Made by a program: the position numbers and the translations under genes. From Oligoflexia bacterium (GTDB taxonomy: Bacteria; Bdellovibrionota; UBA1018): a DNA stretch of 64,000 nt. Below are positions 56,472-62,697 of the stretch, piece by piece. The notes beneath the pieces are model-generated. The model did no database searches. It was given only the letters and a program-made list of their open reading frames with translations, and was not told where the DNA came from. Each line of letters starts with the position of its first letter. Position 1 is the first letter of the stretch. The DNA is taken from positions 1,344,001-1,408,000 of the forward strand of contig CAVWVI010000003.1 in assembly GCA_963758495.1 (NCBI GenBank), in the 5' to 3' direction.

Positions 56472-56771
56472 TCAGGCATGAGACTTGGGTGCAAGATCTC
56501 GGTGCTTGTGTGATATCAATACTGTTCTACCTTCTATGCTCGAATCTGGCATGAGAGCTATCTGGAATCCGTCAACTGATTGGATCTCTTGGAGCCCGTC
56601 CACATGCATTTTTTTTAGTTTAAATGGATCTTTAGTCTTTACTTTAGCTCGAGCCTCTTCAAAATTTTCAGCCGCAACAAAAAAATTTACGTGAGATTCG
56701 TAAATGCCATCACCGATTTCAGAATCATAATAACCACAATGCACAAGAAATAATTTCATTAAAATACCCAT
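56472..56771 (-). CDS. DUF1543-like small protein
   Basis: KLFLVHCGYY..YESH..FFVAA..EAR..K..MHVD..EI..VDG. Confidence 0.7.
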   Translation of the reverse strand: MGILMKLFLVHCGYYDSEIGDGIYESHVNFFVAAENFEEARAKVKTKDPFKLKKMHVDGLQEIQSVDGFQIALMPDSSIEGRTVLISHKHRDLAPKSHA

Positions 56772-58343: not shown

Positions 58344-58414
58344 ACTGTTCTAACTTCTATTCCTCGAATCTGGCATGAGAGATATCTAGAATGCGTCATC
58401 CGCTTGGATCCCTT
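58344..58414. repeat. Degenerate ~70-bp direct copy of 56521-56590 (internal DUF1543-like gene fragment)
   Basis: Shared actgttcta.cttctat..ctcgaatctggcatgagag.tatct.gaat.cgtca...ttggatc.ctt. Confidence 0.8.
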
Positions 58415-59415: not shown

Positions 59416-59644
59416 AACTTGAGGTCACAGTCCGTGATCTCAAGTTTTCTTTTGGTTTCAATAAGTTATTATACTTTCCCAATCTTGAGGTCACAGATTG
59501 TGACCTCAAGATTACCCTTAACTTTAATTACTTAGTACGCTTCTCAAACTTGAGATCACAATCTGTGATCTCAAGTTTGCCTTTAATTTTAATTAGTTAG
59601 TTCGTTTTTTCAAACTTGAGATCACAGATTGTGATCTCAAGTTT
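59416..59644. repeat. Array of four 27-bp palindromes CTTGAG(G/A)TCACA-nnn-(T/C)GTGA(C/T)CTCAAG, period 65-66 bp
   Basis: Cores start at 59418, 59484, 59549, 59615; AT-rich 38-39-bp linkers resemble each other. Confidence 0.95.
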
Positions 59645-59652
59645 TGCCAAAC

Positions 59653-60585
59653 CTAAAGTGCGAAGAGTAACTTCTGGATTATTTCCACAGTTTCGCAGAC
59701 TGAATTATCCCTCTCAATCGCAGTAGCAATCTTATTATAGGCGTGCATGACAGTGCTATGATCCTTCCCTCCAAAGGACTTTCCAATTTCCTTAAAGCCA
59801 ATACCAGTGTGTTTTCGAACAAGATAGATAGCAATCTGTCGCGGAAGTACAACCTCTCGCACGCGAGAGGGCGCTTTTAAGTCTTGGACTCGCAATCCAA
59901 AATATTTGGCTACAGTCTGATGAATTGAATTGATTTTAGAGTGAACTTTTTTCCCATGAATAAGGTCACCCATTTCTTTTGCTTTAAGTTTATCATTTGA
60001 ACCAAATGCATCTTGTTCTTGAGGATGACTAAACCTGTCATCAACATCAACAGTCGTTGGTTTGTGCAGAACCGATAATGCAGGTGCATTATTAGACGAT
60101 TTCTCCATTAAGAGTTGTTGGATTCCACTCAGTATCATTTTGAATTGACCATCCTGCTTTTGCTCAAGTTGCTCCAATCTGGTCTCAATTTCATCTAATT
60201 TCTCTCTTGATTCGATACCTATACCAGACAGTTGTCGAACTTCTGCAAAAGAGCGCATGATCGCAATATTCACCTGAACTGCTCGACCATTATCAAGAAC
60301 GCTCGAAAGCATTGCAACTCCATGCTCAGTGAATGCATAAGGAACAAAGCGGCGTCCTCCATGCTTTAAACTAGATGACACAATATGTATTTCTAGATCT
60401 TTGCTTTCCTCTAGGGTCAACTTAAACATGAAATCAGGAGGAAATCGGTCGCGGTTTCGTTGAACTGCTTGGTTCAGTACCCTAGTCTGAGTTTGGTAAA
60501 ACTCAGCTAGATCATTATCTAAAACCACTTTATGTCCTCGAACCGCATAAATTCGCCGTTTAATTTCACTAACGGATAACTCCAT
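59653..60585 (-). CDS. ORF6N-domain protein fused to DnaA domain IV (Bac_DnaA_C)
   Basis: N-term RGHKVVLDNDLAEFY..T..LNQAVQRN..RFP.DFMF.L, GGRR..PYAFTEHGVAMLSSVL; C-term V.PRQIAIYL.R..T..F.EIG..FGGKDHSTVMHA; ATG 60585 after GAGGG. Confidence 0.9.
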   Translation of the reverse strand: MELSVSEIKRRIYAVRGHKVVLDNDLAEFYQTQTRVLNQAVQRNRDRFPPDFMFKLTLEESKDLEIHIVSSSLKHGGRRFVPYAFTEHGVAMLSSVLDNGRAVQVNIAIMRSFAEVRQLSGIGIESREKLDEIETRLEQLEQKQDGQFKMILSGIQQLLMEKSSNNAPALSVLHKPTTVDVDDRFSHPQEQDAFGSNDKLKAKEMGDLIHGKKVHSKINSIHQTVAKYFGLRVQDLKAPSRVREVVLPRQIAIYLVRKHTGIGFKEIGKSFGGKDHSTVMHAYNKIATAIERDNSVCETVEIIQKLLFAL

Positions 60586-60705: not shown

Positions 60706-60811
60706 ATTTTTGCGGTCACATTTTGTGACCACAAAAATACAATAATCCATTTATCAGCCTAAAATTAATGAAAATATCAACATTTTGTGGTCACAAAATG
60801 CGACCGCAAAA
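60706..60811. promoter_or_regulatory. Two further palindromes of the same family upstream of the ORF6N gene, inverted relative to each other
   Basis: tttgcggtcacattttgtgaccacaaa (60709-60735) and tttgtggtcacaaaatgcgaccgcaaa (60784-60810). Confidence 0.85.
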
Positions 60812-61886: not shown

Positions 61887-61983
61887 GTAGTTCCTTTAGG
61901 GCTGTTGACAAGCACTGCAAGGAGTCCTATTGCGCCGTAAAGATTTGGATTCCCGGCGCAACAGGACTCCTTGCAGTGCTTAC
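61886..61983. mobile_element. Putative MITE/REP-like hairpin element flanked by 11-bp direct repeats
   Basis: 28-bp arms (61910-61937, 61954-61981, one mismatch); cccgaatggta at 61875-61885 and 61984-61994; homologous to 14222-14274. Confidence 0.6.
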
Positions 61984-62029
61984 CCCGAATGGTAGCTTTC
62001 TCAAAAGACTTGAGACTTGGCTTCAACAG

Positions 62030-62434
62030 TCAATCGACGAATAATCGAATCCCCAAAGTGTCGCAAAGAATTCTCATATCACCATCCCTCGACCATAATT
62101 CAGCATTCAGTTTTTTAGCAGTGAGTGCGATTAGAGCATCATTTTGAAGTGACGCAAGATTCGGCCCTTTATGTGTATTCCAAAAAAGCTTACGAATCAA
62201 ATCTGCTGCACTAGACCAATCTTCCTCATCAGGAGGAGCGGCCACAGGGGCTATACTTTTGTTTAAACTCAACTCCCAAGGTGAACCGGGACGCACTCCT
62301 CTACGAAGTTCATGCAGTGTAACAGGTGAAATAATGGGGGCTCGACCTGAAAGAAGAGCATTCCATGTCTTATCATCGATAGCGCCTCTTAAACGACGAA
62401 TGATGATATTCGTATCAATCAAGAGAAAGCTCAT
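62030..62434 (-). CDS. PIN-domain toxin (VapC-like)
   Basis: LIDTNIII, S.VTLHEL..G, NDALIA.TA, LWSRD.D. Confidence 0.88.
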   Translation of the reverse strand: MSFLLIDTNIIIRRLRGAIDDKTWNALLSGRAPIISPVTLHELRRGVRPGSPWELSLNKSIAPVAAPPDEEDWSSAADLIRKLFWNTHKGPNLASLQNDALIALTAKKLNAELWSRDGDMRILCDTLGIRLFVD

Positions 62435-62697
62435 CGAAGGCTTTCTAGGTCAAAATCATTCAAATCAAAGTTTTCTTGTATAGCAGTCATCCACTTATCA
62501 AATTCAGATCGCGCTAATTTCTCTCTCACAAGATCATTTATAATTTCAGACTCTGTCATGCTTGAAGGATAAAGCTCTTTAAGTTCCCGAACTTTCGATC
62601 GTGGAATACGCCCCGAAAATACTTTGGTCTTTGTTTCAGTGGCTGACCTTAATGATTTTCGACCCGCTGGCTTAGTTCGAGCCAATAGTTTTTTCAT
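62431..62697 (-). CDS. Putative antitoxin (RHH-like) of the PIN toxin
   Basis: 88 aa, ATGA overlap with toxin, SEIINDLVRE helix, acidic C-terminus. Confidence 0.7.
   Translation of the reverse strand: MKKLLARTKPAGRKSLRSATETKTKVFSGRIPRSKVRELKELYPSSMTESEIINDLVREKLARSEFDKWMTAIQENFDLNDFDLESLR

Follow-up and report, generated by a model that had tools for sequence, protein, structure and literature searches.

The LRSQxxTS motif of ORF6N proteins is the translation of a DNA palindrome: a putative self-encoded operator relocated outside an ORF6N–DnaA domain IV fusion gene

The LRSQxxTS motif of ORF6N proteins is the translation of a 25-bp double-stranded DNA palindrome with the scaffold TTGA-xx-T-xx-CA-w-TG... 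A 64,000-nucleotide stretch of an Oligoflexia bacterium genome (the window, meaning the whole stretch that was analysed) adds a gene in which this site is lost inside and kept outside. Most probably the site is an operator encoded within the gene of its own binding protein and, in the window, a putative relocated one. The first-pass annotation of this DNA had suggested that the family motif may be a DNA-level operator embedded in the coding sequence, and both the palindromy and the covariation between helix and site bases described below support that suggestion; the motif which it gave for the family, LRSQ(F/I/N)(V/A)TS, is correct by the family alignment.

Several features of the family establish the DNA-level constraint. 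A set of 255 loci gave 196 ORF6N domain hits, and 159 were retained after removal of 23 without anchors and 14 duplicates. In 150 of the 151 plain ORF6N genes, the best 25-mer between the anchors has at least 9 of 12 possible pairs; the sole exception, L169, is mis-anchored and carries a decayed site. When fusions are included, 145 of 154 strong sites start 21 nt after the FMFxL anchor. The 147 in-frame genes have a mean of 11.2 pairs, which drops to 4.9 when they are recoded synonymously at local codon usage (P<0.05 for each gene), and other in-frame 25-mers of the same domains have a mean of 2.9. Of the 51 loci with more than 55% GC, 47 begin the motif with TTG, and for Arg 37 use AGG or AGA and one uses CGG. 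At pairs 1–11, 231 compensated cells stand against 68 broken ones (cells count sequences, not events), and 230 of the 231 compensated cells lie in codons for a non-consensus residue. In three genes the palindromic DNA is one base out of frame and is read as VVTNCDH or VVTICDH. Normal synonymous variation with no maintained palindrome, which the first-pass annotation named as the outcome that would speak against its idea, is thus not what the family has: the codons are held palindromic by compensatory changes, most of which alter the amino acid.

In the predicted structure, the site codes for the end of a helix (residues 58–65) and a loop of lower confidence. Covariation, the second reading frame and the loss in the window gene show that the peptide at this helix end and loop tolerates change. 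The orientation of the palindrome centre is evenly divided (49:49), and mismatches within sites are A–C in 30 cases, G–T in 11 and others in 27, so that RNA wobble pairs are not favoured on the coding strand; these properties fit double-stranded DNA better than an mRNA hairpin. The excess of A–C over G–T (30 versus 11) on the coding strand across the 147 in-gene sites corresponds to G–T on the template strand. A metagenome scan with the fusion alignment returned true dnaA genes only, which were reused as a negative control; the family palindrome does not occur in 80 dnaA loci (395 kb).

Two further observations concern palindromes within coding sequences. Second in-frame copies or near-copies of the site lengthen the loop in five ORF6N genes (P0010, P0012, L062, L094 and L133). 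In-frame 25-bp palindromes are also seen, at a seemingly fixed place, in five RhuM ORFs (11–12 pairs) and seven DUF1016 ORFs (9–12 pairs), which were picked by regular expression from 40 loci (L256–L293) without a control.

The bases of the site covary with residues of a helix encoded in the same gene. This code was derived from 116 genes below 80% identity. Column 33 of the model (Q39 in the window protein) goes with bases 8–9: Q with CA in 109 of 114 arms, E with CG in 50 of 50, K with TC in 18 of 20, L with TG or TT, and R mostly with GC or AC. Column 29 (R35 in the window protein) goes with base 6: K with G in 149 of 152 arms and R with A in 32 of 40. Leave-one-out prediction is correct at bases 8–9 in 199 of 232 arms (baseline 111) and at base 6 in 210 of 232 (baseline 164). 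For a viral hold-out, 33 domains were reduced to 14 non-redundant ones, of which one was unanchored, one had 8 pairs and 12 were scored; all 24 arms are inside the allowed set at bases 8–9, and 23 of 24 at base 6. An earlier viral scan had given no match. Model positions 29, 30, 33 and 34, all in the helix, covary most strongly with the site. The code has no obvious explanation in shared descent, because the helix residue is scattered over a tree built without the helix and site columns, with 50 changes at column 33 versus 53.9 when shuffled, although this tree is poorly resolved (3 starred branches of 121) and an independent-pairs test had only 1–3 usable pairs. The covariation is observed; direct contact between the helix and the site bases would be its natural explanation.

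The window gene and the features within it are as follows.

59653..60585, minus strand: ORF6N–DnaA domain IV fusion gene, 310 aa (PF10543, E 4e-30; PF08299, E 1e-27)
59728..59934, minus strand: DnaA domain IV core (profile and alignment)
60370..60396, minus strand: decayed in-frame site, encoding L64–S72 (LEIHIVSSS), 4/12 pairs (position and recoding control)
60457..60486, minus strand: codons of the predicted recognition helix 34–43, TRVLNQAVQR (model helix and covariation)

The predicted model of the fusion protein (mean pLDDT 84.6) consists of the ORF6N domain, a long helix at residues 100–163, a low-confidence linker and DnaA domain IV. The ORF6N assignment scores 104.3 bits against a Pfam gathering cut-off of 27.8 (PF10543). 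A fold search with the N-terminal domain, made to see whether it resembles a KilA-N/APSES-like winged helix, gave weak rows only (Dachshund 1l8r, Z 6.2; Ski 3eq5, Z 5.4). From the helix-turn-helix layout of the model, helix 34–43 is presumably the recognition helix, and R35 and Q39, the two code positions, lie one turn apart on it. A homodimer prediction for residues 1–165 scored 0.12 and carries no weight in what follows.

Both the fold and the DnaA-box reading motif of DnaA domain IV are present in the fusion. The modelled C-terminal domain superimposes on 1j1v (Z 17.1, rmsd 1.3 over 94 residues), and a wider C-terminal part is 59% identical to domain IV of the host DnaA over 90 aa. The protein has DHSTVMHA where DnaA has DHTTVLHA, and the basic-loop Arg is also aligned; we take this type of motif and this Arg to be the residues that read the DnaA box. 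The fusion is not a full DnaA initiator: it has no AAA+ domain and reaches 107 versus 343.9 bits with TIGR00362, over residues 199–304 only. Two 151-nt reads of one public DNA run (share 0.07), which perhaps comes from the source sample, match 60132–60417 without difference, coverage being limited to that span; no RNA run was listed. A promoter scan stayed at chance level (4 versus 4.4), and the family searches returned no congeneric genome of the window host among their matches.

The in-gene site of the window gene has decayed. The first-pass annotation had recognized LEIHIVSSS at the in-frame position, placing it one base off at 60371–60397 (the stretch is 60370–60396 on the minus strand), and had counted 15 of 27 matches to array unit 3, for which a recount gives 16 of 27 to both units 3 and 4. 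A match of 15/27 or better to unit 3 is found in 0.15% of 127,948 window 27-mers, and random synonymous recoding of LEIHIVSSS gives a mean of 12.6/27 (P=0.09), so that the similarity to the array, taken alone, is weak evidence. Homology follows from position, because the stretch begins 21 nt after FMFxL as do 145 of the 154 strong family sites; there, the window gene falls short of 9/12 pairs. The codons for LEIHIVSSS are no nearer to a palindrome than random recodings of them (3.9 pairs, P=0.60), and therefore the DNA-level constraint has gone from this gene.

Six palindromes, listed without strand, are found outside the gene.

59419..59443: downstream unit 1, 10/12 pairs, arms GGTCAC / GATCAC
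59485..59509: downstream unit 2, 11/12 pairs, arms GGTCAC / GGTCAC
59550..59574: downstream unit 3, 11/12 pairs, both arms GATCAC, full match to the helix code
59616..59640: downstream unit 4, 11/12 pairs, both arms GATCAC, 12 bp past the stop codon
60710..60734: upstream palindrome 1, 10/12 pairs, 125 bp before the ATG
60785..60809: upstream palindrome 2, 9/12 pairs, 200 bp before the ATG, one arm off the code

Read as codons, unit 4 spells the family peptide LRSQIVISS (59616–59642, plus strand) and the upstream palindrome at 60785 spells LWSQNATAK, both as first noted. The downstream units are spaced by 66, 65 and 66. Over 34 nt, unit 4 is identical to the reverse complement of unit 3, and centres are flipped from one unit to the next, between spacers that are direct repeats. 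The TRVLNQAVQR helix predicts GATCAC arms. As expected for sites of an autoregulatory protein, the arms largely follow the helix at positions 8–9 (CA in 11 of 12 outside arms), and position 6 is the predicted A in only 5 of 12 (both arms of units 3 and 4, and one arm of unit 1). An open coding repeat was considered for the array and rejected, as no ORF of at least 50 aa covers it.

Other repeats and genes lie near by. A REP-like 78-bp inverted repeat at window positions 61906–61985 has 100 BLAST hits in the genome (both strands counted). A 52-bp direct repeat (87%) at 56539–56590 and 58363–58414, one copy being inside a DUF1543 gene and the other intergenic, is present in the genome only in these two copies. 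A PIN-domain ORF with a small upstream ORF (62030–62697) is likely a VapBC-type pair.

The host genome has one other ORF6N gene, likewise a DnaA domain IV fusion, whose in-gene site is partly decayed (8/12 pairs). Its E/K helix predicts GGTCGC, and eight palindromes lie upstream of it: four of them, one being the unit closest to the start, carry the predicted CG on each arm, and the remaining four are of an R type that matches neither fusion. One copy of the REP-like repeat is located just upstream of this array. Across all loci, 60 distinct outside sites lie beside 38 genes; 28 of them fit the adjoining helix versus 15.9 when permuted, and 19 of 46 versus 11.8 do so without the window genome (P=0.003). 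The 32 of 60 that do not fit count against the operator reading, as do the low agreement at position 6 in the window, the half of the paralogue's array that suits neither fusion, and a lone site beside oriC described below; the downstream sites alone are not significant (11 of 27 versus 7.2, P=0.11).

The claim that the site was lost inside the gene and multiplied outside is borne out for the window gene and its paralogue, and the proposed correlation between internal loss and external copies is seen as a trend. When only genes with flanks of 400 bp or more on each side are counted, a matching outside copy accompanies 4 of 4 decayed versus 16 of 141 intact genes (Fisher P=2.7e-4); these counts are not independent, and the four include two genes of the window genome and three fusions. 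The decayed fusions L167 and L168, with truncated upstream flanks, were left out of this count and have no site downstream. In the counted set, arrays of four or more units occur only at the two genes of the window genome. Against a general rule, outside copies also lie beside intact genes (27 of 138 intact plain genes), and of the three intact fusions two are likewise accompanied by a matching one; therefore fusion status and site loss are confounded. In about half of 13 aligned fusion proteins, as judged by eye, the motif is lost and the helix is kept.

The following mechanism is suggested from these sequence relationships. The ORF6N protein's own helix-turn-helix most likely reads the site, with residue 39 setting bases 8–9 and residue 35 setting base 6; binding through this helix is the part of the proposal to be held with good confidence. 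Because the helix codons lie only about 75 bp from the site, lock and key would be inherited together and could diversify together. Binding, presumably as a dimer, would most likely serve to cap the protein's own level, by an in-gene roadblock in ordinary members or by repression, looping or titration from outside; that it does limit this level has roughly an even chance of being correct. In the window fusion, the internal site would have been free to decay once outside copies had taken over; the two upstream sites are placed such that they could repress, and the four-unit downstream array could be a sink or a looping partner. Template switching, which would explain the flipped centres between directly repeated spacers, could copy a change from one arm to the other, so that lock and key might move together. 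Near-perfect symmetry exceeds what most operators need, which suggests such an added symmetrizing process. In the window, with the peptide lost, the helix intact and the outside site kept, the evidence suggests that what is conserved is the DNA rather than the peptide.

Some of these features could also be read in other ways. Near-perfect symmetry, flipped centres within the array, in-frame duplications of the site in several genes and the similar palindromes in RhuM and DUF1016 genes would all be expected if the palindrome were a hairpin, a cruciform or a recombination signal of another factor, made symmetrical by template switching, with the helix covarying as part of a linked block. Covariation that peaks at the four helix positions rather than over the block, a code that also holds for outside sites even where the internal site is gone, and the lack of any recognized recombinase or transposase among the ORFs adjoining the window gene make this account unlikely. 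Comparably unlikely is that the in-gene site is a real operator and that the copies outside it are debris without function, left behind by repeated insertion, deletion and slippage of ORF6N cassettes. About half of the outside sites mismatch the adjoining gene, as debris would, and in genome G218 a perfect site and a DnaA domain IV stump precede an intact fusion with a different code, in an oriC flank that is a variable-gene region (G218 versus G201). In the window, however, the outside copies keep 9–11 of 12 pairs and the in-gene stretch is at chance level, the reverse of what decay of debris would give, and the arrays of the two paralogues are differently coded, each favouring its own helix.

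RNA hairpins acting as terminators or processing sites would account for the many outside copies directly after stop codons and for the terminator-like scores of units 1 and 3 on the plus strand (3 hits versus 1.3 in shuffles). A terminator within nearly every gene is implausible, though, the even centre orientation and the coding-strand mismatches do not favour RNA, and the helix code is left unexplained, making such a role very improbable. The prominence of LRSQxxTS in protein alignments might suggest that the peptide is what is conserved and that the palindrome is a coincidence of codon choice; this is contradicted by the recoding control and the compensated pairs, as well as by the rare codons of the GC-rich loci, the second reading frame and the non-coding copies, and its probability is close to nil. 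The self-encoded operator thus stays the preferred reading.

The fusions have a particular relation to the replication origin. In the host genome, 17 DnaA boxes clustered upstream of dnaN, close to where GC skew is at its minimum, mark oriC. All 15 palindrome sites of this genome (in two the centre is altered) are no more than 47 kb away from this cluster. One of the sites stands alone.

G000:C3:1449614-1449638: lone perfect palindrome of TATCCC type, 288 bp from the first DnaA box, fitting neither fusion

No ORF6N remnant is found near this lone site. In G218, a perfect site 277 bp from the DnaA boxes is followed by the domain IV stump (L296:5914-6126), which resembles the remains of an earlier fusion, and then by the full fusion gene, the code of which differs from that of the adjoining site. 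In G335, the fusion ends 227 bp before the DnaA boxes. A dnaN match was obtained in 61 genomes of the family (the fusion carriers G302 and G309 have none), and in the 59 dnaN-upstream regions examined, several of them short, palindromes are found only in the host genome and G218, and ORF6N sequence only in G218 and G335. Five fusions share a contig with dnaN, and all are found no farther than about 51 kb from oriC, two of them within 0.8 kb; of nine plain ORF6N genes that likewise share a contig with dnaN (8 genomes), none is within 100 kb. Short contigs bias this comparison toward near genes. Given this bias and the variable-gene character of the oriC flank, birth at dnaA followed by local spread is a fair alternative to a function at the origin. 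No clean boundary of an insertion emerged when DNA was searched for empty sites at the fusion locus of G218 and G302.

Across the order (116 genomes), fusions are found only in the host's own family. In a tree, 16 of the 21 domains IV from fusions group on a single branch (SH-aLRT 92, unstarred), separate from the DnaA of the family, and the DH-TT motif is altered in several. The fusions L163 (G335:C464) and L001 both adjoin atpB–atpE genes, which suggests one old insertion about 10 kb from oriC. The host dnaA itself (G000:C3:1441426-1442941) contains a one-base frameshift, possibly an assembly error, that divides it into open frames of 346 aa and 175 aa. Speculatively, and with considerable doubt, the fusions might be two-headed adaptors in which one head binds a self-specified palindrome and the other a DnaA box, and palindromes near oriC might be a loading or storage site from which they compete with DnaA or bridge to it. 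If true, this would give a mobile lock-and-key gene control of host replication initiation.

If the operator reading is right, the conserved motif of a very large protein family (at least 7,990 hits among 8,000 candidates scored) is a DNA signal, with a cognate site beside each reading helix, and thousands of natural protein–site pairs and a two-residue recognition code could be tested or reused directly. The window supplies a rare natural control: its gene has kept the helix and lost both the peptide and the in-gene site, and copies of the site survive outside it. Fusion to DnaA domain IV, together with the clustering around oriC, provides a testable link between replication control and a family that matches an anti-phage candidate. 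Searches of the literature, with few subscription papers or supplements of bioRxiv preprints among what they covered, turned up nothing on the ORF6N palindrome, the recognition code or the fusion.

DNA sites inside the gene of their own binding protein are known: parS in spo0J/parB, the lambda ori iterons in gene O, and the purR operator in purR. The ORF6N site resembles these in lying within the coding sequence of the protein predicted to bind it. It differs from them in that it occurs family-wide at one codon position, is hypervariable with compensation, determines a protein motif, tracks two residues of the helix and can be relocated outside the gene.

Among the described systems covered, the nearest parallel for a KilA-N-like protein whose locus contains a cognate DNA element is BstA with aba: BstA stops phage DNA replication, its DNA-based aba element overlaps its own gene, and BstA variants have cognate aba elements (PMC8585504). 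The aba element spans 63 bp at the start of the gene and has direct repeats at its ends, whereas the ORF6N site is a palindrome; BstA lacks a DnaA domain, and in the accessible part of that source no recognition code is described and neither 'palindrom' nor 'ORF6N' occurs (PMC8585504). The N-terminal part of the window protein (145–163 residues) matches three PADLOC PDC-S05 models at E 1e-33 to 1e-47. With one PDC-S05 member, T7, T5 and T4 plated less well (10.1101/2024.09.26.614923); this tested member is described as carrying a Virulence_RhuM domain, with no DNA site reported in the part of the source available, and the window protein is instead an ORF6N–DnaA IV fusion. RhuM and DUF1016 genes lie beside programmed inversions, in a report whose accessible text does not contain 'palindrom' (PMC9881135). 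HdaB, a short stand-alone DnaA domain IV-like protein, acts by binding HdaA and affects initiation frequency (PMC7049699; Frandi and Collier). HdaB and the window fusion are alike in carrying a DnaA domain IV-like module outside DnaA; unlike HdaB as described there, the fusion has a second, predicted DNA-binding head.
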